Below are positions 3,187-58,681 of a stretch of 64,000 nucleotides of DNA, in pieces. The stretch comes from a virus: IMG/VR virus record IMGVR_UViG_3300047548_000145, positions 3,204 through 67,203 of that record, one strand, 5' to 3'. The translations under genes were made by a program, and so were the position numbers. The stretch's first letter is position 1. The number at the start of each line of letters is the position of its first letter. A model generated the notes under the pieces. It saw nothing but the letters and a program-made list of their open reading frames with translations, ran no database searches and was not told the origin of the DNA.

Positions 3187-3422
3187 TAAGTTAATCGTTT
3201 ACCTAGGTTGACAGATTTAGTCACTGCAAGGATGACAATGTCTGTAGCCTTATGTAGGTCATACCTGTAGATAAGTTGATCCATAAGCTTCTTGTCGTTT
3301 CTTATACAGCGCAACTCCATCCAGTCTGTAATTCCCCAAGCCTTCTTCTCAGCCCTCTTCCTAGCCTTGGTGTATGATATCTTTAATTCTAGATACCATA
3401 TGTCGTTAGTCTGTTCGCACAT
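3183..3422 (-). CDS. hypothetical protein
   Basis: 79 aa basic ORF overlapping the next start. Confidence 0.6.
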   Translation of the reverse strand: MCEQTNDIWYLELKISYTKARKRAEKKAWGITDWMELRCIRNDKKLMDQLIYRYDLHKATDIVILAVTKSVNLGKRLTY

Positions 3423-5021: not shown

Positions 5022-5777
5022 TTAAACCTCTTCTATATCGTAGAATCTGTAGGCTTCCTTTGGACTGAAAACAAAGTTCCTTACATTCTCTACTGCTCTT
5101 TCAAACTTCAAGCGTCCACCTTCCAGAGTACGCTCTGATGCCTGAAATATCTTGGGAGTGTATGGATAACTAGTATCCTGTGCTACCCAATAATACCGAT
5201 CCGTGTTCGCCAACTGCGTATAGATATACGCCTGAATGTCGTACCCGAAAGAGTATATGTCACGCTTGAACCCAGAGATAGCACGTGTAGACTTGGAGTC
5301 AGACACGTAGTAACTACCCTTGCAATCCAAGAAACCACGTACAGGGGCATCTCCAATGAATCCAGCCAACTCAACTTGGTACTGACCCTTTAGATAGTCC
5401 TCTATAATACCAGAGTCCTCAAGTCTGTTAATCATATCAATAGCCTTGTTGTAGTCCTCCATTCCAACGAGTGTCTTGCTTGTCTCTGACAACTCAGCCT
5501 TCCACTCCTTGTAAGCCTTGGTGGCACGTGGTGACGCACCTCCAATCTTTGCAACAATCTCAGAGTCATCCATCACCGTGAAGCTGTTCTCAAACAACTC
5601 TGGTGTGAACAGCAGGGTGTCGTACAGCCTACCGAACGTGAGTGCATCTGAATCTTTATGAAGTTTACCCTGGACGTACAATTCAAATAGACGCACATCC
5701 TGGATGGCATACTTAAGCGAGGTGTAGGTAAGGTAGTCCTTACCCGTCACCTGCTGTAGTTTAAGTGCAAACTCCAT
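5022..5777 (-). CDS. PD-(D/E)XK exonuclease, RecE/ExoVIII-like (DUF3799-type)
   Basis: Motifs LTYTSLK, ALTFGRLYD, RGFLD, DSKST, YDIQAYIY; adjacent to ERF. Confidence 0.75.
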   Translation of the reverse strand: MEFALKLQQVTGKDYLTYTSLKYAIQDVRLFELYVQGKLHKDSDALTFGRLYDTLLFTPELFENSFTVMDDSEIVAKIGGASPRATKAYKEWKAELSETSKTLVGMEDYNKAIDMINRLEDSGIIEDYLKGQYQVELAGFIGDAPVRGFLDCKGSYYVSDSKSTRAISGFKRDIYSFGYDIQAYIYTQLANTDRYYWVAQDTSYPYTPKIFQASERTLEGGRLKFERAVENVRNFVFSPKEAYRFYDIEEV

Positions 5778-6382
5778 TACTTCACAAACTTCTTGAGAGC
5801 GCTAATCTGTGCCTCAGAGAAACCTGTACCATACTTGGCGATGATGGCATCATAGGCCTTGGCCTTGTCTGAAGAACTTTTCAGGAAGTCAATTGCCTGC
5901 TGAAACGTATCCTGTGCAGGGGCAGAAGGAACAGCCTTTGTAGTCTGTACATCCTTGCCGTGCGTGTTGGTAGAGTCAGCGTCCTTGGTGTCATCAATCA
6001 AGAACATCCCGTTGAGCGCATATTTCCTTGCGTATGAGGATGAGGCACCGAAGCACTGAGCGATATCCATACCCTTACGATTCGGATCGATACCTGCCTG
6101 TGCAGACACAGAGATTAAATCTGTACCATCCGTGAGGTGGACATTAGCCTCCACATACACAATACCACAAACTTCCTCAATGCTGTCCGAGATGGTCATA
6201 GACAAACCATACTTCTTCAGAAGTGGTTTGACAGCCTCAAGGATGTCTTCTGCATTGCGGTAAGAATACTTACCGAAGCTGTTGTACTGACTCTTAGGAG
6301 CCTTTAACTCGCTCTGAATAGCGATTACTTTGTCGTTAAACGACTGAGCATCAGGTTGTGATGCGGGCTTTGTTGTAGCCAT
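5777..6382 (-). CDS. ERF-family single-strand annealing protein
   Basis: IQSELKAPKSQYNSFGKYSYRNAEDILEAVKP ... GASSSYARKYALNGMFLIDDTKDAD. Confidence 0.9.
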   Translation of the reverse strand: MATTKPASQPDAQSFNDKVIAIQSELKAPKSQYNSFGKYSYRNAEDILEAVKPLLKKYGLSMTISDSIEEVCGIVYVEANVHLTDGTDLISVSAQAGIDPNRKGMDIAQCFGASSSYARKYALNGMFLIDDTKDADSTNTHGKDVQTTKAVPSAPAQDTFQQAIDFLKSSSDKAKAYDAIIAKYGTGFSEAQISALKKFVK

Positions 6383-8993: not shown

Positions 8994-9530
8994 CTAAAAC
9001 TTCTCTTTTAGGTTATTTTTTTCTATTACTTTTCGTAGTGCTTCTTCGTAGTGTTGAGCCTCTGCGTAGTTAGACAGCAGGTTGTAAAACTCATCTTCGG
9101 TTCGGCACTTGTTAGCGTAGGCAGCACACCATAGGGCATAGTCCACAACACAGTCCTCCCAGTTGTCGTAGTAGGCGTGGCCTCGGTTAGTCCCTCGTGC
9201 TGTAGTAACACGTTGACGTGCTTGTTTCATCCCGAACAGATTATTATTCTCACGGAAGATTGGCGACTTGAATCCTCCGCTCTCAACCTTGGCCTGCGCT
9301 AAGGCAATGTGCGGGAATCGCAGGTTCAACTTCTTCAATTCACGAATCAGGCGTTCCTCGGTGAAGTTGTTTTGTGACACGTTAACGCTCACAACAGGTT
9401 CGTAGACGAGCGTGTTACCACTGAAGGCCGCAAGTCCAATAGAGGCCATTAAAACGGCTCCTACAGCCACGTTCTTCTTCAGGTTAGACGTGCGTTCAAA
9501 CGTCAGGGTTTCTTTATTGTAGCGGTACAT
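8994..9530 (-). CDS. glucosaminidase (GH73-like peptidoglycan hydrolase) with N-terminal TM/signal
   Basis: IALAQAKVESG..NNNLFGMK..YYDNWEDCVVDY..YAEAQHY. Confidence 0.8.
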   Translation of the reverse strand: MYRYNKETLTFERTSNLKKNVAVGAVLMASIGLAAFSGNTLVYEPVVSVNVSQNNFTEERLIRELKKLNLRFPHIALAQAKVESGGFKSPIFRENNNLFGMKQARQRVTTARGTNRGHAYYDNWEDCVVDYALWCAAYANKCRTEDEFYNLLSNYAEAQHYEEALRKVIEKNNLKEKF

Positions 9531-9912
9531 AATACTTTGTTACAAATTTTCCCTTTGAAATGTTATACCAAAAATCATATCCTTGACTTGACTTTTTCCA
9601 CACGAACGAGCCTGCAATAAACCCAGAAAAGGTATCAGTCCCTTTAAGTAGCCACTCAACATCTGCTTCTCCACGAAGTTTCACCACATCGTGCCTCCAC
9701 ATAACTTGGACTTCATCAGGCAGTTTGGTAAGCCAACTTGCTCCAGTTCTTACGGATGGCCCACGCAGGTCAATGGTCTTAGGTACAAAGTTCCGCTTGA
9801 ACTCAAGCATAGCCTCGATAATCCATTCCCGATCGACAGCGTGGAAGTGGTACTCGTTCTTGTCCTCGTACTTTGCGAGGATTTCACTTGCGATTTCTTT
9901 CTTTGATTTCAT
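9514..9912 (-). CDS. hypothetical protein
   Basis: 132 aa; C-terminal FxWxxSxQGYDFW motif. Confidence 0.65.
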   Translation of the reverse strand: MKSKKEIASEILAKYEDKNEYHFHAVDREWIIEAMLEFKRNFVPKTIDLRGPSVRTGASWLTKLPDEVQVMWRHDVVKLRGEADVEWLLKGTDTFSGFIAGSFVWKKSSQGYDFWYNISKGKFVTKYYVPLQ

Positions 9913-10127
9913 TTTGTTGATGTTAATTTATTTAATAAGTCAATTTGAGATTCAACTGAATGACCATTCCTTACTCCTTCTTCTATGTCGTTAGATAACC
10001 TCTGCATATTTGTTCCAAGATGTTTTAGGGAAAAATCAACTATATTCTGGTAATCTTCATCGCTCATCCATTCTTTTCTTGGAATAAGAATGTTCATCAT
10101 TTTGTTTATCTGTTCTTGGTAGTTCAT
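9909..10127 (-). CDS. hypothetical protein
   Basis: 72 aa, ATGA overlaps on both sides. Confidence 0.6.
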   Translation of the reverse strand: MNYQEQINKMMNILIPRKEWMSDEDYQNIVDFSLKHLGTNMQRLSNDIEEGVRNGHSVESQIDLLNKLTSTK

Positions 10128-10642
10128 TTTTCGTTGCTATTAAGTAATTTATTTATTTCTGTAATAATTAAATCTCCGATATACTCACGGCAGATGTCTG
10201 CTGTTTCTTTTGATTTATGTCCCATAGAATTAGTATAGGCAGCATAAGAAGCATAACCATAATCGCTAAAAACAGCATAAAAAGCATCTGTAGCGCCTAA
10301 AGGATTCGCTCTTCCAGTGTCCTTTGCGGCCATCCAAAGAGCGTGTTCAGCATTATTTACAGATTCATTTAAATCTTTAAATGTTGCTCTACCTTCACCA
10401 AACGCAATAGCTACGTCTACTGCGTTTATACTTTCATCATATTTCATTAAATGTCTAACGGTATTTGCACAATGTCCTTTTGCAAGTGTTAATTTTTGGA
10501 AATCAATTTTTACAATATCTACCAAACTTAATATCCAATCACCCCTGTGGCATTGTTCAATAAACTCCTCAATCGTTTTATCATACGCCCATTTTATTAG
10601 TGGAATAGATTCAAGTATCAATAATTCATTAAATGTTTTCAT
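10124..10642 (-). CDS. Ala-rich helical hypothetical protein (possibly Imm5-like)
   Basis: CHRGDWIL..LTLAKGHCANTVRHLM..AVDVAIAFGEG; ends NSNEK*. Confidence 0.6.
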   Translation of the reverse strand: MKTFNELLILESIPLIKWAYDKTIEEFIEQCHRGDWILSLVDIVKIDFQKLTLAKGHCANTVRHLMKYDESINAVDVAIAFGEGRATFKDLNESVNNAEHALWMAAKDTGRANPLGATDAFYAVFSDYGYASYAAYTNSMGHKSKETADICREYIGDLIITEINKLLNSNEK

Positions 10643-10671
10643 TTCTCGCTTGTGTTAAAGGTTTATCAATT

Positions 10672-10926
10672 CTACAGCAAATCTGTTGACCTCAGATATC
10701 CAACATACATTCCTCTATCTTCCCAGTAGATATCTCCAGAATGCATTACCTCTTTCCTGACATCTTTCTCTTCATCATCAATATCTTTGATTGAATCCTC
10801 AACAGCTTTGATTGCCATATCTTTATTCTGGAATGCTCCAATCAAACTCCAATCGAGCGCTCCCCACGTGGGGCCTCCTCCTTTGTATGCTAAATGAACT
10901 TTCATAATCTTGTTTTTCTGTTTCAT
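10672..10926 (-). CDS. hypothetical protein
   Basis: 84 aa between two junction repeats. Confidence 0.6.
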   Translation of the reverse strand: MKQKNKIMKVHLAYKGGGPTWGALDWSLIGAFQNKDMAIKAVEDSIKDIDDEEKDVRKEVMHSGDIYWEDRGMYVGYLRSTDLL

Positions 10927-11150
10927 TTCTCGTTGGTGTTAAAGGTTTCGTTGTAGTAGTCTTCGAATGATTTTTCTTTACCGATATAGTTATCCCCCAT
11001 ATATTCACTTCTGCTCTCGTCCCATACGTCTCTCATCTGCTCCTTCTCCATTTCTAATGCTCGCTCCAAGACATCGTCTATTTCTGGTTGTTCCATCCCT
11101 GCGCTATTTTGCACTGTGTTAATCAACCATTCTACTGCTGTCTGTTTCAT
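10923..11150 (-). CDS. MKQTAVEWL-family small protein (paralogue 3)
   Basis: MKQTAVEWL..ALEMEKEQM..YYNETFNTNEK. Confidence 0.75.
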   Translation of the reverse strand: MKQTAVEWLINTVQNSAGMEQPEIDDVLERALEMEKEQMRDVWDESRSEYMGDNYIGKEKSFEDYYNETFNTNEK

Positions 11151-11329
11151 TTTACTGCTGTTTTAATTTGCTTCTCCTCGACTCGGAAGGAATGGTTTTT
11201 AGGATTTTCTTTTTGCTTGTGGTAGTCAAGGTGCAGGAGCCATTTAGAAGAGTGATTGTGAAATATCTCCCGTGTTCCCTCGATACCGAACCTGTCGGTT
11301 CTCTTAAAATGCAGGACGTAAACTTTCAT
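11147..11329 (-). CDS. hypothetical protein
   Basis: 60 aa, ATGA overlaps. Confidence 0.55.
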   Translation of the reverse strand: MKVYVLHFKRTDRFGIEGTREIFHNHSSKWLLHLDYHKQKENPKNHSFRVEEKQIKTAVK

Positions 11330-11724
11330 TTGAATTGGATTTGTGTTCTGTTCTTAACATCGTAGGCATACGTTGCTCCTGTGTAGATGGTGGCAAACAT
11401 AGCGTCCTCAAGCCTGTCGAAACGTTCGTACATATTGAGGCTGTACTTCTGCCCCTCCTGAACTAGCCCGTAGTAGTATCCCCTCGGTGCAGGGCCTGCC
11501 TTCTCAAGCCACAGCCGTACCCAGTCCTCCTTCATCACGTAGTGGTGGGCGGACAGGTAGGTGTCTCCTGTTGGAATCAAGTACCCATCCGTGGGCATAT
11601 TCATAGCGCTGTCGATGAAGACCAATGACAGCATTTCGATTCTGCCCGCCATAACGTGCGCTATGGTTTCAGGCGCAGGATTCTTCATCTCCCTGTAATA
11701 GTTAAAGTTAAAGAAGTTCATCAA
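11326..11724 (-). CDS. hypothetical protein
   Basis: 132 aa ORF. Confidence 0.65.
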   Translation of the reverse strand: MMNFFNFNYYREMKNPAPETIAHVMAGRIEMLSLVFIDSAMNMPTDGYLIPTGDTYLSAHHYVMKEDWVRLWLEKAGPAPRGYYYGLVQEGQKYSLNMYERFDRLEDAMFATIYTGATYAYDVKNRTQIQFK

Positions 11725-12058
11725 AGTAATAGTTTAAGACATCTACTATAAGTTCTTCACCAAGTGCTGTCTTTGGATTAATGCTGGTCAGCGTAGTGTT
11801 CTGCAATGTGATGCTGTCGTACATCTCCAAGATTTCGAAGTAGTCAACAGCGGCCACCATAGTCGCTCCGTAGTCGTAGTCGAAGTGCTTGTCGCAGAAG
11901 ATTTCAAGGTCATCCACCGTTTCTACTCCGTACTTAGACCTGTGCCTGTACAGGTACTCGTCAAGGTCTCCGAGGTCGCATTCAATGTATGCTGTCTTCG
12001 GTCTGCTGTAGGTCAACTTGGCCATTAGTTCCCAAGTGCAGCAGTTCGTGGAATACAA
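11708..12058 (-). CDS. acidic hypothetical protein
   Basis: Start may lie at the downstream MAKLTYS. Confidence 0.6.
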   Translation of the reverse strand: MYSTNCCTWELMAKLTYSRPKTAYIECDLGDLDEYLYRHRSKYGVETVDDLEIFCDKHFDYDYGATMVAAVDYFEILEMYDSITLQNTTLTSINPKTALGEELIVDVLNYYFDELL

Positions 12059-12237
12059 AGGGCGTGGACATCGTTGTACTCGTCATTAGAGAAGAATACT
12101 CCATCGTACATATAGCCGTCTCGATTCCAATTGCGTGACGTGAATAGTTCCTGCGTGATATGGTGTACGGCTCTGCGTTTCATATCCTCGCTCAATCCCT
12201 TGGTAACCTTGTTTACTTTTTCTTCGGTGGTAAGCAT
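12025..12237 (-). CDS. hypothetical protein
   Basis: Likely start MLTTEEK at 12237 after an A-rich leader. Confidence 0.5.
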   Translation of the reverse strand: MLTTEEKVNKVTKGLSEDMKRRAVHHITQELFTSRNWNRDGYMYDGVFFSNDEYNDVHALCIPRTAALGN

Positions 12238-12322
12238 AACGTAAATTTTTAAGTTTAGTTTGTTTTCAATTAGTTCAATTATTTCCTCCTGAGTCAGGTG
12301 CTCAAGTATTTTCTCCATTCGG

Positions 12323-12739
12323 TCAAGCGCCCAATACCTGTTCATATACTGACTCTCCGTTACTGAATGAACCTACTTTTACCATCTTCGCCCAAGGCCG
12401 AACAGCCTTGTTGAAGTTCTTTTCTACCCAAGTATCGGCTTCCTCATCCAAGGCAATTTCTTCCTTGCGTGACAGGTAGGCGGAGTCGGTCTCATCCGTG
12501 CGCACGGACAGGGATACAATGCCGCAGTACTCTGCGATGGCGATTTCCACTACTCCGTTTCGGAGGATTACGTTGTTCTCTCCGACCCATTCATCACAGG
12601 TTTCCATATTTGGAAACAGGCCCGTAACGTGTTCCTGAATGTCTTCAATCAGGTAGTCGAACAAGACGTGCTCTTCTTCATCGAATTGGAAGTAGATAAC
12701 AGCCTTTGCATTTGGTAGGTAACTTACTGAACGTCCCAT
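12323..12739 (-). CDS. hypothetical protein
   Basis: 138 aa; MGRSVSY...EYCGIVSLS...GSFSNGESVY. Confidence 0.7.
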   Translation of the reverse strand: MGRSVSYLPNAKAVIYFQFDEEEHVLFDYLIEDIQEHVTGLFPNMETCDEWVGENNVILRNGVVEIAIAEYCGIVSLSVRTDETDSAYLSRKEEIALDEEADTWVEKNFNKAVRPWAKMVKVGSFSNGESVYEQVLGA

Positions 12740-12761
12740 TTTGTTTACTTGTTTTTAATGG

Positions 12762-12950
12762 TTAAACTAATTGGAAGCCGAATGCCTCTTCGAAATCTTT
12801 GCGGCCAAACTCGCCATCCCATTCCTGATACAGGCGCTGTCCTTCTTCAATCCAAGATACGGATACGTTGTACGCTTTTCCTGTCACCTGCAGGTCTACC
12901 TGTACTTGCTTAGCCTCGAACAGGCTTTGGTTAGTGATTTGTGTTTTCAT
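12762..12950 (-). CDS. hypothetical protein
   Basis: Likely start MKTQITNQS at 12950. Confidence 0.55.
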   Translation of the reverse strand: MKTQITNQSLFEAKQVQVDLQVTGKAYNVSVSWIEEGQRLYQEWDGEFGRKDFEEAFGFQLV

Positions 12951-12955
12951 TTTGT

Positions 12956-13138
12956 TTATTTGTTTAATTTGTTTTTTTGTTCGTAAATGATTTCGATTTG
13001 GATGTCCACAAAACAGAGGGACAGGGCAGTGATGATTGCGAGAATAGCCCGTGTGTAGTGCTCGGTCTGCATTGCCTGTACGCCTGCGATAATGATGGCC
13101 ACGATGGCTAAGCGTACGAGGAAGATTGATGTTTTCAT
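12956..13138 (-). CDS. small membrane protein
   Basis: 60 aa, two TM-like segments, downstream of the promoter at 13161. Confidence 0.65.
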   Translation of the reverse strand: MKTSIFLVRLAIVAIIIAGVQAMQTEHYTRAILAIITALSLCFVDIQIEIIYEQKNKLNK

Positions 13139-13160
13139 AGTTTGATTTGTTTTGGATAGT

Positions 13161-13191
13161 CAAATGTAATACTAAATTCTGAACTGACAAA
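13161..13191 (-). promoter_or_regulatory. Bacteroidota sigma-type promoter (-33 TTTG, -7 TACATTTG)
   Basis: Minus strand TTTGTCAGTTCAGAATTTAGTATTACATTTG. Confidence 0.65.
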
Positions 13192-13196
13192 CTTTT

Positions 13197-13376
13197 TTAG
13201 AAATTATTTTCAATGAACTGGATGAGGGACTTTTTTGTACGGAAGTACATAGTGTGTACGTTCGTCTGCAGGTGGTTGCCCTCAAGTAGTGCCCAAGATT
13301 TCAGGTATCTGGCAGGCCATTGTGCGTATGCAAAGTAGAAGGTCTTTCCGTTGTGGGTGATGCTCTGTGCTTTCAT
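13197..13376 (-). CDS. small hypothetical protein (59 aa, not in ORF track)
   Basis: MKAQSITHNGKTFYFAYAQWPARYLKSW...; starts just after hammerhead 1 with the shared ATCGAAATG leader. Confidence 0.6.
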   Translation of the reverse strand: MKAQSITHNGKTFYFAYAQWPARYLKSWALLEGNHLQTNVHTMYFRTKKSLIQFIENNF

Positions 13377-13389
13377 TTCGATCGATTTT

Positions 13390-13441
13390 GGTTAAGACGG
13401 GCTTTCGCCCGTTTCGGATATTCAATCCTCGTCAGTTAACC
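13390..13441 (-). ncRNA. type I hammerhead ribozyme (copy 1)
   Basis: GGTTAA-CTGACGA-GGAT(TGAAT)ATCC-GAAA-CGGGC(GAAA)GCCCG-TC|TTAACC; complete core and three stems. Confidence 0.9.
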
Positions 13442-13588
13442 TTTTAGCATTTTGTTTTTCATTTCTTCGAGCGCCCAAAGTTTGTAGCGCCATAGTGCGG
13501 CAGGGCTCAACTTGTTGGGGACATTAAGGCTGTCCTGCAGGTCTTGGATGGCGGCTATGGTGTCCATCTTTTTTGCTTCGTATTCCAT
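13436..13588 (-). CDS. small hypothetical protein (50 aa, not in ORF track)
   Basis: MEYEAKKMDTIAAIQDLQDSL...; TAA stop lies in hammerhead 1 stem I. Confidence 0.55.
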   Translation of the reverse strand: MEYEAKKMDTIAAIQDLQDSLNVPNKLSPAALWRYKLWALEEMKNKMLKG

Positions 13589-13626
13589 TTTGATAGTGTT
13601 TTTAGTTTTGTTAGTGTATGTTAATA

Positions 13627-13827
13627 TTAGTATTTCTTTTCGGCTGCGTCAAGGAAGGAAATAACGCTAACAGCGAACAGCATCAGGGGGAGGATGCAGA
13701 TAATGGCGATACTTGCAGTGATTTCCCCGCCCATTTCTTGGTGACGGATTGTGGCGTAAAGCATAGCGCCTGACTGAATAGCACAAAGTAGCATCAGGAC
13801 CGCACGGAAGGTTTGCGTGATTTTCAT
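13627..13827 (-). CDS. small membrane protein
   Basis: 66 aa, two TM-like segments, immediately after hammerhead 2. Confidence 0.65.
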   Translation of the reverse strand: MKITQTFRAVLMLLCAIQSGAMLYATIRHQEMGGEITASIAIICILPLMLFAVSVISFLDAAEKKY

Positions 13828-13850
13828 TTCGATTGAATTTAGTGTTTCTT

Positions 13851-13900
13851 GGTTAAGACCCCCGAAGGGGTTTCGGCTACTTAAGCCTCTTCAGTTAACC
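13851..13900 (-). ncRNA. type I hammerhead ribozyme (copy 2)
   Basis: GGTTAA-CTGAAGA-GGCT(TAAGT)AGCC-GAAA-CCCC(TTCG)GGGG-TC|TTAACC. Confidence 0.9.
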
Positions 13901-13912
13901 TGATTTACCGCT

Positions 13913-14296
13913 CTAACCGAATACTATCTCGCTGAAGAACACCTGCTGAAGGATGCAGTCGGCTGTATCTGCGTCATCACGCTCTTCAATCATTTCAAGC
14001 AATTTGTTGACAGGAGTTTGCTGAACTCGCTCGTGAACGTCCTGCAGATTGATGCTGTAACTCTCCTCCGCATCGAGGTCAACTATAGTCAGGCTTTTCC
14101 CGTCTCGCAGAATTTGCATCAGCACGTCCACGTAGCACACATCTGAAGCCTCCTTCACCAACGTAGCATTCGCAGAGGCATAGTCAACAGCCTCGTAAGT
14201 AAGTTGAAGGTCGTAGTAACCCATCTGCGCTAAGCCATTGCACAGGGCGTTGTAGAAGTACATTTCGCTCTCTTGGGGGGTCAATTTGATTTCCAT
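13913..14296 (-). CDS. acidic hypothetical protein
   Basis: 127 aa ending DDADTADCILQQVFFSEIVFG; lies between hammerheads 3 and 2. Confidence 0.75.
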   Translation of the reverse strand: MEIKLTPQESEMYFYNALCNGLAQMGYYDLQLTYEAVDYASANATLVKEASDVCYVDVLMQILRDGKSLTIVDLDAEESYSINLQDVHERVQQTPVNKLLEMIEERDDADTADCILQQVFFSEIVFG

Positions 14297-14318
14297 TTCG
14301 ATTGAATTTTAGGATTTT

Positions 14319-14368
14319 GGTTAAGACCCCCGAAGGGGTTTCGGCTACTTAAGCCTCGTCAGTTAACC
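14319..14368 (-). ncRNA. type I hammerhead ribozyme (copy 3)
   Basis: GGTTAA-CTGACGA-GGCT(TAAGT)AGCC-GAAA-CCCC(TTCG)GGGG-TC|TTAACC; upstream ORF stop lies in stem I. Confidence 0.9.
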
Positions 14369-14596
14369 TTCGATACCACAGCACTTCTTGAGGTCTCCGT
14401 CCTGTATCATTTGTTGGATTACGTCTATGCAATCCTTCTTGCTGCAGCGGGTGTCCATCCATTCGTTGCCGTAGAACAGGTTCCATTCTCCTGAGGGAGC
14501 GCAGTTATCATTCAGGCGCTGACTTACAAACAGAGGCAAGGGAAGACCTTCGATGGAAACTTGGTACTTACCTGCGATTACTTTAGTGACTTTCAT
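14363..14596 (-). CDS. hypothetical protein, first gene of the early operon
   Basis: 77 aa downstream of the promoter at 14632. Confidence 0.7.
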   Translation of the reverse strand: MKVTKVIAGKYQVSIEGLPLPLFVSQRLNDNCAPSGEWNLFYGNEWMDTRCSKKDCIDVIQQMIQDGDLKKCCGIEG

Positions 14597-14631
14597 AACG
14601 TGTAGTGGTTAGTTGTTGTTGTTTGACATTG

Positions 14632-14662
14632 CAAACATACGGCAACAATCTGAATACGCAAG
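14632..14662 (-). promoter_or_regulatory. early Bacteroidota-type promoter (-7 TATGTTTG)
   Basis: Minus strand CTTGCGTATTCAGATTGTTGCCGTATGTTTG. Confidence 0.65.
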
Positions 14663-14808
14663 AAATATTTTTACGGAATATCGCAACTCGCTCATAAACC
14701 CCAACAAAATCAAGGGTTTACAGGTGAAAAAAAGTTTACAGCAGGGCAACAATTGCACAACAGCACAGCAGAAGGTATCCAAAACTGGCCTCTCCAGGAA
14801 CGAGGCTA

Positions 14809-14957
14809 ATGGGGACAAGTGGGACAAGGTGGGAACAAGTGGGGAAGGAAAGGGGAAGAAGTGGGGAAGGGGATATAGGTAATAAGGGGAAGGGGATTGT
14901 CCCTATCCTCCTCCTCTTTCAACTAACTTCCTCCACCTACTTTCCATCCTCCTCCCA
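14809..14957 (+). repeat. purine/G-rich degenerate repeat followed by a pyrimidine-rich tract
   Basis: GGGGACAAGTGGGACAAGGTGGGAACAAGTGGGGAAGG... then CCCTATCCTCCTCCTC...CCTCCTCCC. Confidence 0.7.
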
Positions 14958-15267
14958 ACACACTTCCAAACACAGCAGCAGGTATCCTAAGGTGCTCTCT
15001 ATAGGCTGTCAAAAACGCTGAATTCCCACACGGATTTGGATGCTTGGAAGGGGGGTTGGGTTTGGGATTTCGTTTCGGTATATGGAACCGCACGTGCGTA
15101 AAATATATATTATCCCCTGGATGCGTATAACTCTCTCCCATAAAAGAACGCAGTTCGTGTCGAAGACTCTGTTCCACAAGTCGCATCTTCGATGCTGAGT
15201 GCCATAGGCACGAACTGTACCTTATCACTGAAATGCACGATAGGCTGATTTATCGCCTGAATAGGTG

Positions 15268-15330
15268 ATACCGTACATCATACCGTACATCATACCGCAC
15301 ATCATACCGTACAAGATACCGCACATCATA
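15268..15330 (+). repeat. 12-bp tandem repeat x5 (iteron-like)
   Basis: ATACCG(T/C)ACATC units at 15268, 15280, 15292, 15304 (variant ..ACAAG) and 15316. Confidence 0.85.
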
Positions 15331-15518
15331 TGCGTGTGCATATAAGAATCTGTTCTTAGACTTGTTTATATGCTTGTGCGTATACAGTTCAGGAATCTGT
15401 TGACTTTTGGGAAGTAATTCGGGTATTCCTAGAATTGAATAGGTAAATCTGACATAAAAGCAGACCTCTGGGCGGAGTATACAGCATCCCCATAACCTCC
15501 TTAGTAGTGTCGTCAGTG

Positions 15519-15552
15519 TCGCTTGGCTAGGGGGCTTGGGGGCCCCTGCGCT
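15519..15552. repeat. intergenic GC-rich motif, copy 2 (copy 1 at 6445)
   Basis: TCGCTTGGCTAGGGGGCTTGGGGGCCCCTGCGCT. Confidence 0.65.
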
Positions 15553-15782
15553 GTGCTCTATGCGTGTTTACCAGTGCGATGCAACTGTTAAGCGGGGAAG
15601 CGTGTTGACGTGTTCGGCATCTTACTTACGTCCTATGACGCTGCTAAGGTAAATGAAATAATTGACATTTCCAAATGCGTTTAGACAAAATCTATCACAA
15701 ATGGTATCTTAATAGATTTTATCTATCACCTTATAGAGGACATAGGAACAGCCTATAGTCCCTTACAAGACACAAAAGTGTG

Positions 15783-15790
15783 TATATTTG
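15783..15790 (+). promoter_or_regulatory. -7 promoter element for the plus-strand module
   Basis: TATATTTG 19 nt before ATG 15809; TAnnTTTG also precedes genes at 17522, 22338, 24832, 31665, 32278, 35849, 42501 and 44670. Confidence 0.6.
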
Positions 15791-15808
15791 TATCTCTAAA
15801 GACAAGTT

Positions 15809-16156
15809 ATGAAAGCTGTTAAGAAATATGCTGTAGGTGGTACAGTGCCCAAGAAAGAGAGTTGGGTACAGTCTGGCAGGTCTCCTATGGATCCAAGTAC
15901 CACACAGAAGCAACAGATTACTAACAAGGAGCTTTTAGAGCGTCTCACGCATCAGAAGGCACTAGAGGCACTGAAGAGGTCTGGAGTAGGCACTATCAGC
16001 TCAGACAGCACCAAGGTAGTACGTATGGACGCTTCAGGTAAGACTGAGATCTTAGACAACAACTACGCTAAGACCATCGCACTCGCTAAGGAGAAGGGTT
16101 TATACGATATAGCTAGACAGGAAGCTGTCAAGGATTTTAGAAACAGAAAAGCTTAA
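15809..16156 (+). CDS. hypothetical protein with KKYxxGG motif
   Basis: MKAVKKYAVGG... Confidence 0.7.
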   Translation: MKAVKKYAVGGTVPKKESWVQSGRSPMDPSTTQKQQITNKELLERLTHQKALEALKRSGVGTISSDSTKVVRMDASGKTEILDNNYAKTIALAKEKGLYDIARQEAVKDFRNRKA

Positions 16157-16159
16157 GAT

Positions 16160-16318
16160 ATGAAAACAAACAAGAAGATGTATATGGGTGGCGGGATGGC
16201 ACCTAAATACGGTATGGGAGGTATGATGAAGAAGTACCTCAAGGGTGGACAGGTTAAACTGGACAAGGACCAGGATGGCAAGATCACGGGTAAGGACTTT
16301 AAGATGATGAAGAAATGA
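16160..16318 (+). CDS. small protein with three YxxGG motifs and an EF-hand-like loop
   Basis: MKTNKKMYMGGGMAPKYGMGGMMKKYLKGGQVKLDKDQDGKITGKDFKMMKK. Confidence 0.65.
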   Translation: MKTNKKMYMGGGMAPKYGMGGMMKKYLKGGQVKLDKDQDGKITGKDFKMMKK

Positions 16319-16488
16319 AAATCAAGAAGTACAGCGAAGGCGGTGAGATGGAATCTGGCCGTATGGTAGAGGTGAAGGCTATGAGTCTGGATGAGGCTGT
16401 CAAGCAAGTTATGGCTGCAGTCAAAGTAAGCAAAGAACAGCCTACCCACTACAAGATCAAAGCCTGCTACTACTCCGAGGAGGAATGA
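16315..16488 (+). CDS. small protein with KKYxxGG motif
   Basis: MKIKKYSEGGEMESG...; ATGA coupled. Confidence 0.6.
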   Translation: MKIKKYSEGGEMESGRMVEVKAMSLDEAVKQVMAAVKVSKEQPTHYKIKACYYSEEE

Positions 16489-16652
16489 AGATCACCAAGA
16501 AGAATAACAAGATGATGGTAACGGCACCAGAGGGATATCACTGGATGTCCGAGAAGGGTCGTTACTACCTGATGAAGCACGAGGGTAAGTTCGTTCCCCA
16601 CGAGGGAGCTAGCCTAGAGGCATCGTTCAGGATTAAAGAGAAGCACCAATGA
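16485..16652 (+). CDS. small hypothetical protein
   Basis: MKITKKNNKMMVTAPEGYHWM...; ATGA coupled. Confidence 0.6.
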   Translation: MKITKKNNKMMVTAPEGYHWMSEKGRYYLMKHEGKFVPHEGASLEASFRIKEKHQ

Positions 16653-16789
16653 AACTAATCAAGAGAGCAGACGGCACCTACTCCAAGAGAGGGCTGTGGG
16701 ATAACATCCGTGCTAACAAGGGTTCAGGCAAGAAGCCTACCAAGGCTATGCTAGAAGCTGAAAAGAAGATTAAAAATGAAAGTAAGTAA
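16649..16789 (+). CDS. small basic protein
   Basis: MKLIKRADGTYSKRGLWDNIRANKGSGKKPTKAML... Confidence 0.6.
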   Translation: MKLIKRADGTYSKRGLWDNIRANKGSGKKPTKAMLEAEKKIKNESK

Positions 16790-17024
16790 GACCTCCAAGT
16801 ACTACAAGGAGAACCCTGAGGCTGCAGAGAAGCGCAGAGAGTACCAGCGTGAGTACAACAAGTCTACAGAGCGTAAGAAGTACAGAGCACTGCTCAATAA
16901 GTACAACAGAGAGCAAGGTACCTACGGGAATGGAGATGGCCTAGATGCCTCCCATACCAAGTCAGGTAAACTTGTATTTGAGAAGGCTTCAGCAAACAGA
17001 GCACGTAACAGAGGGAAGAAGTAA
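16776..17024 (+). CDS. small basic protein, possibly HNH-like
   Basis: GDGLDASH....NRARN resembles a minimal HNH motif. Confidence 0.5.
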   Translation: MKVSKTSKYYKENPEAAEKRREYQREYNKSTERKKYRALLNKYNREQGTYGNGDGLDASHTKSGKLVFEKASANRARNRGKK

Positions 17025-17534
17025 CTAGCGCTGGGGGTCTACAATCTGTCCACCCACGAGCCAGTACGACTTTCTCTTGATAGCAGACTTCCCTTCAAGT
17101 TTCTTGTAGAAGTCCTGTACGTGCAACTTACCCTTCTGGGTGAGAGAGAACCGATTGCTATACACCTCTGACTCTATGTTACGCATAGCCAACTGCTCCA
17201 TAGTGATGCCCTCACTCTTTCTGTTGTACATAACGTCAATGAGGCCATAGGCACGGATAGTAGGCAGTATCTTGACACGTATATAGCTCTCGGAGAACCC
17301 TGAACGCTTGGCTGCATAAGGGATAGTAAAGAACTCGTAGTCATACGACCACAACATAAAGGCTACGTGGGCAAATGACAGCCTCCTGTCGTCACGGAAG
17401 TCTCCAACAGCCGATGCAAGATTGCTGCAGTAGCTCGCTCCTATCTTGTCTGGGTCTGCTTTAGAGAACTCTCTGAACTTCCTAGAGGGGTGCTTACGAA
17501 AACGCTTCATACTTAATTTCATATATTTGTACAA
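17025..17534 (-). CDS. putative winged-HTH DNA-binding regulator
   Basis: Lone minus-strand gene; HTH-like segment and FSLTQKG wing motif (MarR-like). Confidence 0.55.
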   Translation of the reverse strand: MYKYMKLSMKRFRKHPSRKFREFSKADPDKIGASYCSNLASAVGDFRDDRRLSFAHVAFMLWSYDYEFFTIPYAAKRSGFSESYIRVKILPTIRAYGLIDVMYNRKSEGITMEQLAMRNIESEVYSNRFSLTQKGKLHVQDFYKKLEGKSAIKRKSYWLVGGQIVDPQR

Positions 17535-17546
17535 AAATACGAGATT

Positions 17547-18764
17547 ATGGGCAGTTTAGCTTCCGTTAAGGTAAAAGATGGTTACCCCACGCTCCTGAAG
17601 ACGGAGACCAGCACTCTGAGCAGTACTCTACAGATTGTAGAAGATGGTATCGGTACCAATTCTGCACTTCTTATTGGAACAGACTCTATCGGTGTGTCTG
17701 GAAACCAGTTCTTCACCAATGGTTTGGTTGTAGACAATACGGAACTCACTGGTGTTTTTCTAGACGCTAACAACAGACTCGTAAAAAGAGAGCTTGGAAC
17801 AGACGCATTTTCATCTACAGGTGACTATACAGCCTCTGCACCTATCAGCATCAGCACAAACGTAATAAACCTGCTAGCACCTAGCGTTATCGCACAGATT
17901 ACTGCCGCTGGCCTGGTTTCTGGCGACTCAATGCTAGTATACGACCAGTCAGACTCTGTCTACAAGGGGATGACGATGTTGGACTTTAACGACTATTTGT
18001 TCAAGAATCCATCTTTTACTGTCCGCCCGCCATTGGCATACGATTCTTCCCTGAAGATATTCTCCCTGCAGAACCCAGAAAATATGCCTGCAGGCCTAAT
18101 TACGCCTGTAAGCACCACACAGTTCGTTGTGTCTAACCCAACGGGGTCTGGATATGGTGGAGTTACCTTCGATACGCTGGTGACAGAGATTGCTGCATCT
18201 ATTGCACTACCTGCTGCAGGAAGCACTGGACAGATTCAGTTCAATAACTCTGGCGTATTTTACGCATCTTCCTCCTTTGTAATCAGCGGATCAGCAGGAG
18301 CAGAGACCTTGCAGTTTGCTGGTCTTATGTCCGAGAATAAGGAGTCATCCGACTCTGATACTTTCGTCTTCAGAAAGAGTGGAAGCCCTGATTTCCTAGG
18401 AAGTGCAGCCACTAAGACCCTGATGTTCTCCGATGACGTGAATACGGGCCTTGGATGGCGTACTATGGCTACAGTAGATGGGCTTGGTAAGTACAAGGCT
18501 GTCATTATGGACTATGTGATGTACAACGACTCTGAGTCTAAAGTACGTGTAGGTAGGCTGTCTGGCTGCTGGAACACCATCTTGTCGTCTTCTGCCACCT
18601 ATACAGACACCGTCTTGACTTACTTTGGTAGTGGAATTGACGCAAACCCACTGCTGCGTATTTCAATCAGCGGTGCTGGAGTTATCACCATCGAAATCAA
18701 TAACAGCCTTGGTGAGCAGATACACGTCCGTGCTGAGGCTAAGTTTATGTACTCTTACTTCTAA
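17547..18764 (+). CDS. putative virion structural/fibre protein
   Basis: S/T/G-rich, with a GSTGQIQFNNSG fibre-type motif. Confidence 0.55.
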   Translation: MGSLASVKVKDGYPTLLKTETSTLSSTLQIVEDGIGTNSALLIGTDSIGVSGNQFFTNGLVVDNTELTGVFLDANNRLVKRELGTDAFSSTGDYTASAPISISTNVINLLAPSVIAQITAAGLVSGDSMLVYDQSDSVYKGMTMLDFNDYLFKNPSFTVRPPLAYDSSLKIFSLQNPENMPAGLITPVSTTQFVVSNPTGSGYGGVTFDTLVTEIAASIALPAAGSTGQIQFNNSGVFYASSSFVISGSAGAETLQFAGLMSENKESSDSDTFVFRKSGSPDFLGSAATKTLMFSDDVNTGLGWRTMATVDGLGKYKAVIMDYVMYNDSESKVRVGRLSGCWNTILSSSATYTDTVLTYFGSGIDANPLLRISISGAGVITIEINNSLGEQIHVRAEAKFMYSYF

Positions 18765-18776
18765 TAAAACAATCCA

Positions 18777-19058
18777 ATGAAATTTAAAGACTACACGGAC
18801 CTGTTTATGTTTGTCAACGAACAGACTCAGGAAATCAAGAACAGAATCGAAGAGTCAGGGATGGATAACGAGGTAGACATCCTTGTAGTCGTATCTTGCC
18901 AGAAGCAGGGCTCCGATAAGGGTCAGGCATATATCGAAATCTCTAACAACGATGTAGAGGTGGTGGCAGATATGCTTGAACTGGTTGTGGACGCTATTGA
19001 CTCAGACGAGAGCAGCCGCATTGACTTTACCAATTTCGACAAGTTAGATATCAATTAA
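18777..19058 (+). CDS. acidic hypothetical protein
   Basis: 93 aa ORF. Confidence 0.65.
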   Translation: MKFKDYTDLFMFVNEQTQEIKNRIEESGMDNEVDILVVVSCQKQGSDKGQAYIEISNNDVEVVADMLELVVDAIDSDESSRIDFTNFDKLDIN

Positions 19059-37333: not shown

Positions 37334-40300
37334 ATGGCTATAGATAAGCTCACCCCCAGGTACCTCAACCTAGATGACGAGGCACGTCTTATCAAGAATA
37401 TGGAGATGACAGATGCACTGAACGTCCGTGTATCTGCTACCGAAGAGGGCAATGAGGGTGTTATTAAGAACGCATTTGGAAACAGTGCTGTAGCCTTTAA
37501 GTCTGGAAACAACTGGCAGAATAAGCCACACGCACTTCCCGCTGGAAGCAATCAGGTAGTAAGTTCTTTGGAGGACAAGGCTACTGGGCAGGTAATCTTC
37601 TTTGTGTGGAATAGTAATTCTAATCATAGCATCTACAGATTTACCACCTCATCGGATTTCTGTGAGTTGGTGTATAGAGATTCTGTTCTTTCGTTCAGAA
37701 GAAACTCACATATTCAGGCGAACATTATCAAGAACCTGAATGATGATTCATTGCTGTACTTTACAGATGGTAACGTATCCCCGAAGAGGATTAATATCAC
37801 AGCGGCAATCAGTGGTTTGTACTCTGATGTGTTAAACAGTGGAACAGCCTCAGAGAAGCTACAGTTCCTTACTGTGGCACGTATGCCTCCGATGGACCCT
37901 CCTTCGTATCAATTCAGAACTGATACAACATTTGAGGATAATCTGATCTACAACAAGAACTTTCAGTTTGCCTACCAGTACGTATACAATGACGGAGAGG
38001 TATCTGCTATCTCTAAATATACAGACTTAGCAGTTGCGCCTAATCAGTATCTAGATGGCATCATAGACGACCAGCAGGAACTAGAGTACAACTACATCAG
38101 ACTGACTTTAAAGAGCAGCGTTGCTGACGTTAGTAAACTGCGTGTACTTGCACGTAATGGAAATGAAGGGTCGTTCTTTATTATTGGAGAATTACCCAAC
38201 CCTATTTCTACCACGGTACAGAATCTCACTCTAGATTTCTACAACGACAGCACGTATAAGTACGTGTCTCAAGACGAGCAGGATAAGCTTTACGATGCTG
38301 TTCCTCTTACCGCTCAGGCGCAGACTATCTCAGGGAACAGATTGTTCTACGGTAACTACGTAGAGGGATACGAAAACACGAACACTTCGTCAACTACCCT
38401 TGTAAACTACGAAGCTGAGCCACAGACGATTAATATACCTGTAACGCTATCTTACGACACAATACTCAGAGCTGGCCCATCGTTGCAAAATCCTGGTAAT
38501 GACTCAGCGCAAAATGCGTATAACAATATAAAAATCAATTTAGATTTATCTGGATACTCCCCATCAAACAGCGTGTCTAGGGCAATCATAAACTTCTCGT
38601 TAAACCTAAGCGGAAAGGAAAACGATAAGGCATTTGATTTGTATTACTTTTTCCCTTTTGGTATATTTTTTAACTGGGTAGAGTTAGATGATGACTTAAT
38701 AGAAAAGAACGCTGGTGGATTGTTGCAATATGCTCGTGTTTTAGTTTCTAGCATAAATATAAACAAGTACATAAACATACCAGCAAATACGTCTACAACT
38801 GATCTTATCAACTTAATAGATAACGAAATATCAAACATCTACACTGCCTCTCTTGGCTCTGACACATCTGTCGCTGGGCAGGCTACAAAAATTCAAGAGG
38901 TAAAATCTCAACTAAATAGCTACCCACGCAGATGGATGTATATGCAAGGGACAGCCTCCTTTGATATATCTCTTTCAAGCAGTTCTGCGACAACGGCTCA
39001 ATTTAGTGTAAATTGTTTAAGCGCCAAAGTATCGCCAAAGGCTATATACAGGGGAGATAACTACTGGAGTCTATCAACTGGATATAACTACAATGCGCTT
39101 CCAAGTCCATCTAAAGAAGTAAACTTTAAGTCTTCTGATGAAGTTACTATTTCTTTTACATCTACCAGTAGGGTATACACAAAAACCAAGCTAGTTGATG
39201 GAGAGGTTATTCCAGATAGCTCTTTTAACGATGTGAATTATGCGGCTATACTTAGAGATATTCCAGTACTAGTAAACTCTCAGGCTTATATAGATGCTGG
39301 TACTTCTAACCTGAAATCATTTAAGGCTGGATCATCTCACTCTATTGGCCTTGTATATTATGACGATAGGGGACGCAGTTCTTTTGTGCAGAAAGTTAAG
39401 GACGCAGACGTTAAGTGGTATACCGACAGACCATATCCATATTACGGAGCTTCGTCTGTAGATTTACGTATCACGTCAAACGGACCTGTATGGGCCTCTA
39501 GATGGGCCCCTGTGCTGCGTAAAGCGGGGCAAGTGAACAGATTCATCCAATACACTGCGATAGACGCTTACACGGCCTCTAATCCAGTCGCTCAGAATGC
39601 TGTAGCAAACGTATCTAACAACGATGTTGTATACGTGTCTATGCGTTCATTAGAAGGCAAAGAGGATAGCTTCGTAAATGCCAAGAGCGCCCTTCTTGAT
39701 TACAAGTATCAGGAGGGTGATAGGCTTCGGATTGTTTCATACAGGGATACAAACATTGCTATTGTAACATTCCAATTTGGAACCACTGTAGCAATTGGCG
39801 ATGTGTACTCAAATAACGGAAGTAAGTATAGAGTAATATCTATTGATGCTGTAGGCACATCTAGAAAGATTACCCTTAAGAGAATCTCAGGGACCACTAC
39901 AATCTCCTCATCTGGATTGTTTACTAAAGGTTCTATCATCTCAGCTTTCTTCTCCTTTGTAGATGGGGCTTTCTACGCAGAGCGATATGTATATCCAGAC
40001 GTAGAATTCACGGTAGCAACGTATGTAAATCTGACAGACGATGTAACCTCTAACCCTATTCTAAACGAAGCAAATGATGATACTGTATACAATACAACTG
40101 GATGGTTCCTGGTACTCAACGACAACGATGCCAGATTCTTCAACAAGCAGTCTATTATTGACGGAGACTCTTCCTGGGCAAACGAAGTAGTAGTAGAAGT
40201 ATACAGCAAGAAAGTACCATCTAACGAAGACATTTACTTTGAGATTGGAAAGTCATTCCCAATTGTAAACGGGGTACACTCTGGAGACTCAAGACTTCTT

Positions 40301-58028: not shown

Positions 58029-58681
58029 CTTACCACTCCATATTACTATGGCCCCTTTCGAGTTGTGGTCTGGACTATATCTTCACCATTTCAGGTGGAA
58101 TGCGTATAGTCTCTACGGATCCTGTCATAAGGCAGTTTCCTCGGGGTTGTCCAGAGAATTAAATTCTCTTAGGATATTCACCGATATAGCACTCTCCACT
58201 TTACTGGTTTCTCTGTTAAGTTGCATTTTTCTTGACAGCTTACCACGGCAGGATCTTGAACAGCAGGTAAAACTACCCTTCTTTTTCCCTATGTGAGTCT
58301 GTCTTTTCTCTTTCACGAAAACAGTAGAACATTCTGGGCATTTCAACTCAAACATTGTTCTACCTGTTTCAGGCATATGTAGTCTCCTATGATCTGAAGC
58401 AGTTAGGACTTCAAGGTTTTCAATCCTGTTGTCTTTCTTTATTTCGTTTTTGTGATGCACAACCTCATCAGCAGTGAGAAGTCTACCTAGATGATTTTCC
58501 ATTACTGCTCTATGATGAAGAACATAATTGTTCTTTGTCCGATTAGGATGGTTCCTAACGATGCAGTAATTGTAATCACCCTTGCTTACAACCTTCTCAA
58601 TGTTCCACAGTAAAGGCTCCATTTCGTATCCGTATTTAAGTTATTCTTGACAAATATACAAAAACTTAGGCTACTTTGCTA
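58029..58681 (-). mobile_element. group I self-splicing intron with homing endonuclease
   Basis: Preceded by exon U and ends in G; core elements GCTATATCGGTGAA (P), GACAACCCCGAGGAAA (Q), CCGTAGAGACTATA (R), AAGATATAGTCC (S). Confidence 0.85.
58125..58622 (-). CDS. intron-encoded HNH homing endonuclease
   Basis: LHHRAVME..VVHHKNEIKKDNRIENLEV..H; C-terminal CPEC..CCSRSC zinc finger. Confidence 0.9.
   Translation of the reverse strand: MEPLLWNIEKVVSKGDYNYCIVRNHPNRTKNNYVLHHRAVMENHLGRLLTADEVVHHKNEIKKDNRIENLEVLTASDHRRLHMPETGRTMFELKCPECSTVFVKEKRQTHIGKKKGSFTCCSRSCRGKLSRKMQLNRETSKVESAISVNILREFNSLDNPEETAL

Follow-up and report, generated by a model that had tools for sequence, protein, structure and literature searches.

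The 64,000-nt window analysed here (positions 3,204 to 67,203 of the IMG/VR virus record IMGVR_UViG_3300047548_000145) carries three type I hammerhead ribozymes on its minus strand, within the leading 1.3 kb of a long operon that runs leftward. With a rough probability of 0.6, we read these hammerheads as intercistronic RNA-processing modules heading the leftward early operon of an apparently crAss-like phage, in which the repeated module would also act as a patch of DNA homology. In order of transcription, the ribozymes are:

14319-14368, minus strand: hammerhead 3, type I, earliest transcribed; predicted cut 14325/14324; 72.1 bits with covariance model R1
13851-13900, minus strand: hammerhead 2, type I; predicted cut 13857/13856; 70.9 bits with the covariance model
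13390-13441, minus strand: hammerhead 1, type I; predicted cut 13396/13395; 72.8 bits with the covariance model

Three hammerheads and their family

The three motifs are not a product of chance. A structural scan found every type I feature in each of them, within 50-52 nt. Stem I is open and comprises 6 bp in all three (GGUUAA with UUAACC), stem II has 4 bp and a 5-nt loop, and stem III has 5-6 bp and a tetraloop; the core reads CUGANGA and then GAAA, and GUC precedes the cut. The type I consensus (C3-U4-G5-A6-N7-G8-A9, G12-A13-A14, the A15.1-U16.1 pair and a base other than G at position 17) was found in three of three copies, with all conserved core bases, A15.1-U16.1 and C17 retained. Hammerheads 2 and 3 differ, as the initial annotation had noted, at a single base out of 53, which is the free core position N7, and hammerhead 1 differs from both by compensatory changes in stems II and III. 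A pattern search of the phage's own record (67,203 bases, judged complete) gave exactly three matches, all on one strand, with none on the opposite strand and none for a reversed control pattern. The covariance model was seeded with an alignment of 58 copies (A1), i.e. 55 unrelated ones and the three window hammerheads. On the 64-kb window it returned these three at 70.9-72.8 bits (E about 1e-15) and no further match, and 14 copies from relatives, which were outside the seed, scored 68-73.6 bits.

The motif belongs to a large class of phage hammerheads with a 6-bp stem I and conserved flanking A's. The exact stem I and core pattern was present in at least 119 IMG/VR contigs. A structural scan of these loci yielded at least 185 hammerheads from 112 sources with 167 distinct sequences; these and all further counts for the family refer to the matches listed. 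Stem I was exactly 6 bp long in 180 of the 185. Among bases outside the search pattern, an A was found at -7, just 5' of stem I, in 99% and at +7, just 3' of it, in 98% of the 171 contexts listed; an A-rich tail and a loop II of the form U-N-A-N-U were likewise conserved without having been specified. Copies lay on the same strand within a locus in all 111 pairs of this same-stem-I set. A second scan was carried out with a pattern of core and loop II only, leaving stem I unspecified (the unselected set), and gave at least 129 matches in 106 new loci, with all 71 pairs again on one strand. Stems I and III were present in 111 of the 129 raw matches, 110 of them with a stem I of exactly 6 bp, the sequence of which varies and covaries. 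GGUUAA/UUAACC was found in 5 of these 111, which ruled it out as a universal stem I. In alignment A1, 12 of 15 pairs change on both sides, none of 500 shuffles reached the observed score, and the core columns are invariant across the 58 copies. The rows had been chosen beforehand for pairing, so that the percentage paired is circular, whereas the pair types are not.

It is very unlikely that the motifs are inactive relics, or RNA structures that do not cut and serve e.g. as stabilisers. The models of Rfam miss them, and relatives show variants at core and cleavage site (U4C in locus L232, A17 in loci L229 and L231), as relics might. The window copies, however, are intact in core, A15.1-U16.1 and C17, and the covariation and invariant core columns extend through the family.

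Placement between genes and the predicted RNAs

The coding content of the array and the RNAs predicted to be cut from it are, in order of transcription:

14363-14596, minus strand: ORF77, opening the leftward operon; its stop is the UAA in stem I of hammerhead 3
13857-14324, minus strand: predicted fragment of 468 nt with a 28-nt A-rich leader, ORF127 and most of hammerhead 2
13913-14296, minus strand: ORF127, 127 aa, acidic; stops 12 nt ahead of hammerhead 2
13396-13856, minus strand: predicted fragment of 461 nt with a 29-nt leader, ORF66, ORF50 and most of hammerhead 1
13627-13827, minus strand: ORF66, 66 aa, small, hydrophobic as judged by eye
13436-13588, minus strand: ORF50, 50 aa; its stop is the UAA in stem I of hammerhead 1
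13197-13376, minus strand: ORF59, first gene past the array; conserved in the five comparison loci L229-L233

The initial annotation had predicted RNAs of 468 and 461 nt, carrying one and two ORFs, respectively; lengths and ORFs were recovered exactly from the three cuts. It was also right that the ends of each fragment can rebuild a whole hammerhead. Since stem I is identical in all three ribozymes, the fragment ends are interchangeable. The bodies of the two fragments are unrelated in sequence, the repeat consisting of ribozyme and leader only, and the leaders between predicted cut and next start codon in the window are 28, 29 and 19 nt long. Searches of PHROGs and Pfam gave nothing above threshold for the functions of the cassette ORFs. 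ORF127 belongs to a widespread family of unknown function (332 proteins at E<=0.001), ORF66 had no family match, and ORF50 has a relative of 57 aa in L230 at the same place, ahead of the final hammerhead. ORF77 had no relative in L229-L233 and was found on a contig of metagenome run X9.

The ribozymes are placed in the same way throughout the family. In the same-stem-I set, the next ORF of at least 30 codons starts a median of 22 nt past the cut (quartiles 21-26; 139 of 150 copies), and in the unselected set a median of 28 nt past it (quartiles 23-39; 108 of 116 copies). For the upstream ORF, the stop codon falls within the ribozyme in 96 of the 150 copies of the former set and in 71 of the 116 of the latter. 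A stop codon was considered as the reason for the conservation of stem I and rejected. Only 76 of 176 copies have their longest open upstream reading frame in the frame of the UAA; the ribozyme's 5' part in any case gives stops in two frames; and stem I lacks a stop codon in many members of the family. Of 50 unselected copies with 2.5 kb of flank on each side, 25 had no neighbour within 2.5 kb, and a solitary copy cannot give circles. With half of the copies solitary and the position always between stop and start, the element is best read as one of intercistronic processing and not as a circle-maker.

The proposed module would comprise a 50-52-nt type I hammerhead and a 19-29-nt A-rich leader reaching to the next start codon, with the upstream gene stopping within the ribozyme or 12 nt ahead of it. 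Self-cleavage would split the polycistronic transcript into a leader-ORF77 RNA, two linear mRNAs (468 and 461 nt) and a remainder with the other genes of the operon. The downstream pieces would begin with 5'-OH-UUAACCA and a short unstructured leader, the upstream pieces would have a folded ribozyme and a cyclic phosphate at their 3' end, and cutting would uncouple stability and translation of neighbouring genes. The leader of ORF77 (14597-14640) was observed to resemble post-cut leaders in L232 (2040-2085 and 2735-2760), with an AACC-A word in common and identical bases ahead of the AUG; cleavage may thus provide each gene with the kind of 5' end that a primary transcript has. Another observation concerns the leader after hammerhead 2 (13828-13856), which contains an 8-nt word complementary to stem II and loop II of hammerhead 1 (13409-13421); the minimum-energy structure predicted for the 461-nt fragment pairs this word with its complement, which may be chance.

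Neighbouring copies keep stem I interchangeable while the hairpins drift. In the unselected set, full pairing between the 3' strand of one copy's stem I and the 5' strand of that in the copy which follows was found for 23 of 36 adjacent pairs; among random pairs the share was 5.5%. When the variable base pairs of the other two stems were tested likewise, stem II gave 9 of 36 versus 16% and stem III 15 of 36 versus 9%. Pairing of stem I in the reverse direction between adjacent copies was equally frequent (20 of 36).

The initial annotation had suggested that the fragments might circularise. Either a re-formed hammerhead or a host RtcB-type ligase would then close them into stable circular mRNAs, and the uniform stem I would have been selected for matching ends. 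In agreement with this, the three stems I are identical, the 5' end of each fragment can pair with the ribozyme part at the other end of the same RNA, and adjacent copies are frequently cross-compatible, as described above; moreover, type I hammerhead RNAs of animal retrozymes with such ends were circularised by RtcB in vitro (PMC7229834). Nevertheless, we regard circular mRNAs as improbable. Half of the family copies are solitary, and cross-compatibility is lacking in 13 of the 36 adjacent pairs. Both fragments are coding and show no unusual degree of structure, with z values against shuffles of -1.34 (468 nt) and +0.06 (461 nt), and in neither minimum-energy fold is the 5' UUAACC end paired. 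Self-ligation of retrozyme RNAs reaches only 1-3%, and RtcB is needed for efficient closure (PMC7229834); no RtcB or RNA-ligase domain was found in a Pfam scan of the 34 larger of the 56 ORFs listed for the window. Perreault et al. (2011) raised spliced and circular products for other phage clusters and sought them, and neither was detectable, with data not shown (PMC3088659). DNA recombination through a type I ribozyme also predicts the same uniformity of stem I. The circular-mRNA idea is neither refuted nor new, and nothing in this analysis supports it beyond the re-formable ends. Equally improbable is a broader form, in which the ribozyme or a host RtcB-type ligase re-closes or re-joins the cut pieces into circular mRNAs and stem I serves as an end-compatibility code for both RNA joining and DNA exchange.

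Identical ends might also be re-joined after cleavage in new combinations, so that RNA exon skipping or permutation would change which genes share a message. The identical stem I strands of the three ribozymes would allow it, and the idea was raised by Perreault et al. (2011), who did not detect such products (PMC3088659). A 6-bp, A/U-rich stem I would presumably hold separated fragments weakly, and we consider this re-joining extremely unlikely.

Near-equal fragment length had been put forward as a property of the units. Numerically this holds for the window (468 versus 461 nt), but it is not a conserved feature. Adjacent cuts in the family are between 179 and 7018 nt apart (medians 454 and 606 nt), and consecutive spacings in other arrays differ by 7 nt or less in one of 43 pairs, compared with 1.5% of random family pairs. 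In the closest relatives, the cuts are spaced 377, 268 and 436 nt apart in L231 and 327 and 240 nt apart in L230. As the equality is not conserved, it is taken as coincidence, and the similar lengths look like chance. The only other near-equal array among the 43 spacing pairs was observed in L046 (5217-5627), where three hammerheads lie 180 and 179 nt apart; this array may be a true tandem duplication.

Gene turnover and possible recombination at the modules

The five IMG/VR comparison loci L229-L233 share the flanking genes. L229 and L231 are near-identical to each other, and over the flanking ORFs the locus L069, on the same contig as L229, shows 78-100% amino acid identity to the window; L232 and L233 are more distant, with a 138-aa anchor protein that is 51-54% identical. 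There are four hammerheads in each of L229 and L231 (one of the four with A17), three in L230, one together with a U4-to-C copy in L232, and one in L233. The ORFs between the ribozymes of these loci are unrelated to those of the window, except for the relatives of ORF50 in L230 and of ORF127 in L232; the latter is located after ORF59 with no ribozyme adjoining. A hammerhead precedes ORF59 in the window and in L229, L230 and L231, and not in L232 or L233. At the nucleotide level, L231 and L230 are homologous to the window from 13445, a point 4 nt ahead of hammerhead 1; the homology also spans hammerhead 3 and its leader and ends at 14287-14290, just beyond the start codon of ORF127. A 57-nt stretch over hammerhead 1 has 100% identity to L231's first hammerhead, which occupies a non-orthologous position in the array; identity in the surrounding DNA is 76-86%. 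Gene swapping at the DNA level, which the initial annotation had proposed, is thereby supported: gene content between ribozymes varies among relatives, and homology breaks at the edges of modules. By these alignments, the modules are apparently repeated junctions within the array of one lineage, at which genes are replaced. The repeated module of about 85 nt would accordingly offer a patch of homology where small early genes could be gained, lost or replaced.

Contigs of four other metagenomic DNA runs (X3, X4, X7 and X9), aligned at 85% likeness, gave further instances of replacement. Record 23 of X9 contains ORF77 and hammerhead 3 as far as 14317; 262 other letters follow, with a different hammerhead at their end, and the match to the window returns precisely at 13856. 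Record 11 of X4 has 562 other letters between 14307 and 13829, and in a contig of X3 hammerhead 1 and its leader (13377-13442) are replaced by 10 letters. The stretch 14010-14277 was covered by none of the four runs, which counts as evidence only where a contig bridges it, as in X4 record 11 and X9 record 23.

Variant copies of the hammerhead could also be observed. The copy at 2683-2733 of L232 has a U4-to-C change in the core and stems II and III identical to those of window copies 2 and 3; it scores 68.4 bits and is possibly disabled. At 2924-2973 of L229 and L231, the stems are as in window copies 2 and 3, and A is found for C at the cleavage-site position 17. A contig of X9 has A17 too, at the position of hammerhead 2.

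The relation of stem I to DNA exchange follows from the topology of the ribozyme. In type I hammerheads, the strands of stem I lie at the outer ends, so that any crossover inside the ribozyme separates them; DNA recombination thus predicts interchangeable stems I, and separation by crossover may explain the cross-compatibility of neighbouring copies. Because reverse pairing is equally frequent, the data do not separate RNA joining from DNA recombination. Recombination inside the ribozyme is plausible but unproven.

Hammerhead and leader could, as another possibility, be mainly a selfish or mobile regulatory cassette that shuffles genes, with RNA cleavage secondary. It would be the ribozyme counterpart of PeSL, which Arbiol et al. 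(2010) describe as a mobile regulatory cassette of T4-type phages consisting of a promoter and a terminator stem-loop (PMC2839356). The presence of the module before ORF59 in L229, L230 and L231 and its absence in L232 and L233 would fit this, as would its replacement by 10 letters in the X3 contig, the identical 57-nt copy at non-orthologous positions, the stem I shared by at least 119 IMG/VR contigs with 167 distinct sequences among the 185 ribozymes listed, and the precedent of PeSL itself. On the other hand, tight spacing to the start codon and an intact core in hundreds of copies imply selection on an RNA function, genes of the same region are also shuffled without hammerheads, and no promoter-like or terminator-like site coincides with any of the three modules. 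We therefore hold a chiefly selfish cassette to be doubtful, though less so than circular mRNAs.

Cassettes bounded by hammerheads and moving as units between unrelated phages were considered separately and not supported. Of 229 ORFs found between adjacent ribozymes in a crude survey, which includes overlapping frames, 126 had no relative in other loci, and 75 of the other 103 had a relative outside a ribozyme pair. Together with the ribozyme-free relatives of ORF127 described below, this speaks against the modules as vehicles carrying genes between unrelated phages. No integrase domain, the feature sought as a mark of integron cassettes, was found among the 34 ORFs scanned with Pfam.

Several points weigh against RNA processing combined with DNA exchange at the modules. 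At the gathering score, Rfam 15 gave no match to the three hammerheads in the whole window, and its hammerhead families matched nothing in 9000-19000 even at E<=10. Cleavage, the extent of the transcripts and the chemistry of their ends are, for this phage, deduced from the DNA. RNA end-joining predicts the cross-compatibility of stem I equally well; a four-gamete test on variants of stems II and III found only three of the four combinations for any pair, and stepwise divergence can account for the combinations present in relatives. Mosaicism extends over the entire early region, hammerhead-free stretches included, and the ribozyme modules are thus not needed to explain gene turnover. Relatives of ORF127 without a hammerhead beside them are present in L232 and L234-L236, and none of 21 metagenome loci with such a relative carries the ribozyme. 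The metagenome joints, finally, come from contigs aligned at 85% likeness and touch a repeat, and two of them are weak, with sides of only 29 letters (X4, 14370-to-14607) and 32 letters (X3, 13901-to-14607). Since these are contigs and the ribozyme is a repeat, this evidence is supporting and not decisive.

Known systems and genomic setting

The locus is of a known kind, i.e. clustered hammerheads flanking small variable phage genes. Perreault et al. (2011) describe prophage hammerheads that flank variable gene blocks and propose processing into gene-length mRNAs (PMC3088659); phage hammerhead clusters have also been reviewed (de la Pena 2017, PMC6155905; PMC6765202). The clusters of Perreault et al. 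resemble the present array in having close-set hammerheads on the same strand that flank small, non-conserved phage ORFs, and the window array likewise has several same-strand intergenic ribozymes flanking small variable phage genes. The triple arrays tested in that work came from prophage regions of Clostridium, Azorhizobium and Agrobacterium (PMC3088659), whereas the window array is from a crAss-like virus of an environmental metagenome and is type I, with a fixed 6-bp stem I and conserved flanking A's. A literature search found no title or abstract on hammerheads in crAss-like phages, and blastn of 12700-15000 against a collection of phage GenBank entries gave no match. Viral metagenomes contain the sub-form with a 6-bp stem I in abundance, yet Rfam 15 does not report it, which matters for annotation; the sub-form may already be contained in the alignments of Perreault et al.

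At the DNA level, the array would work most like the PeSL cassettes. As described by Arbiol et al., these too are short repeated intergenic modules between small non-essential early genes of a hyperplastic region (PMC2839356). In both systems the modules mark the ends of insertions, deletions and replacements that distinguish close relatives, although the region studied here is also mosaic elsewhere. The two differ in that PeSL combines a sigma-70 promoter with a terminator, whereas the module of the window combines a ribozyme with a translation leader; DNA mini-circles have been shown for PeSLs (PMC2839356).

The array shares with retrozymes and viroid-like RNAs (PMC7229834, PMC7761336) tandem type I hammerheads of the same polarity that would release RNAs of a few hundred nucleotides, with 5'-OH and cyclic-phosphate ends able to re-form the ribozyme. 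In those sources, retrozyme units are repeats of one non-coding, highly self-paired sequence, whereas the units of the window are unrelated protein-coding sequences of ordinary folding energy inside the operon of a DNA phage. Repeated units and a highly self-paired, non-coding RNA were both looked for in the window array, and neither was found.

The purpose of bacterial and phage hammerheads is still described as an open question (PMC6155905, PMC6765202). The locus and the few hundred family copies give a testable picture, in which the ribozyme is positioned precisely where one gene stops and the next starts, the start codon being some 20-30 nt past the cut. Such a placement fits the making of short-leader monocistronic mRNAs in hosts that are probably Bacteroidota, a host assignment that in turn fits A-rich leaders without a Shine-Dalgarno sequence. 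The interchangeability of stem I and the replacements ending at modules hint at a second role of the type I ribozyme, as a recombination joint. As a whole, the locus is a good but ordinary example, with two modest leads, namely stem I interchangeability and the sub-form that Rfam does not report.

The following features outside the array were also recorded, the domain assignments being from Pfam:

5022-5777: PDDEXK-like protein, adjoining the ERF recombinase
5777-6382, minus strand: ERF-family single-strand annealing recombinase
14597-15808: non-coding control region of 1.2 kb between the leftward operon and the rightward genes
37334-42496: ORF of 1720 aa with a C-terminal crassvirus muzzle-protein domain
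44695-53754: ORF of 3019 aa with no Pfam match
58125-58622: free-standing HNH endonuclease gene among replication genes

Further Pfam matches were to a BT4734-like primase-helicase, ribonucleotide reductase and ThyX. From its gene content the phage appears to be crAss-like, though its genome is only 67 kb. The ERF recombinase is a plausible enzyme for recombination at short repeats.

The part of the control region beside the start codon of ORF77 is conserved in relatives. Short repeated words, C/T-rich and strongly strand-biased to the minus strand, were observed at 14800-14950, upstream of the first early gene; Rfam gave only spurious microRNA matches there, and the repeats could be promoter or origin elements. 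A 12-nt unit is present in six head-to-tail copies at 15256-15342 of the control region. Contigs of X3 and X7 skip 48 nt of this repeat, i.e. four units, and its copy number thus varies between relatives.

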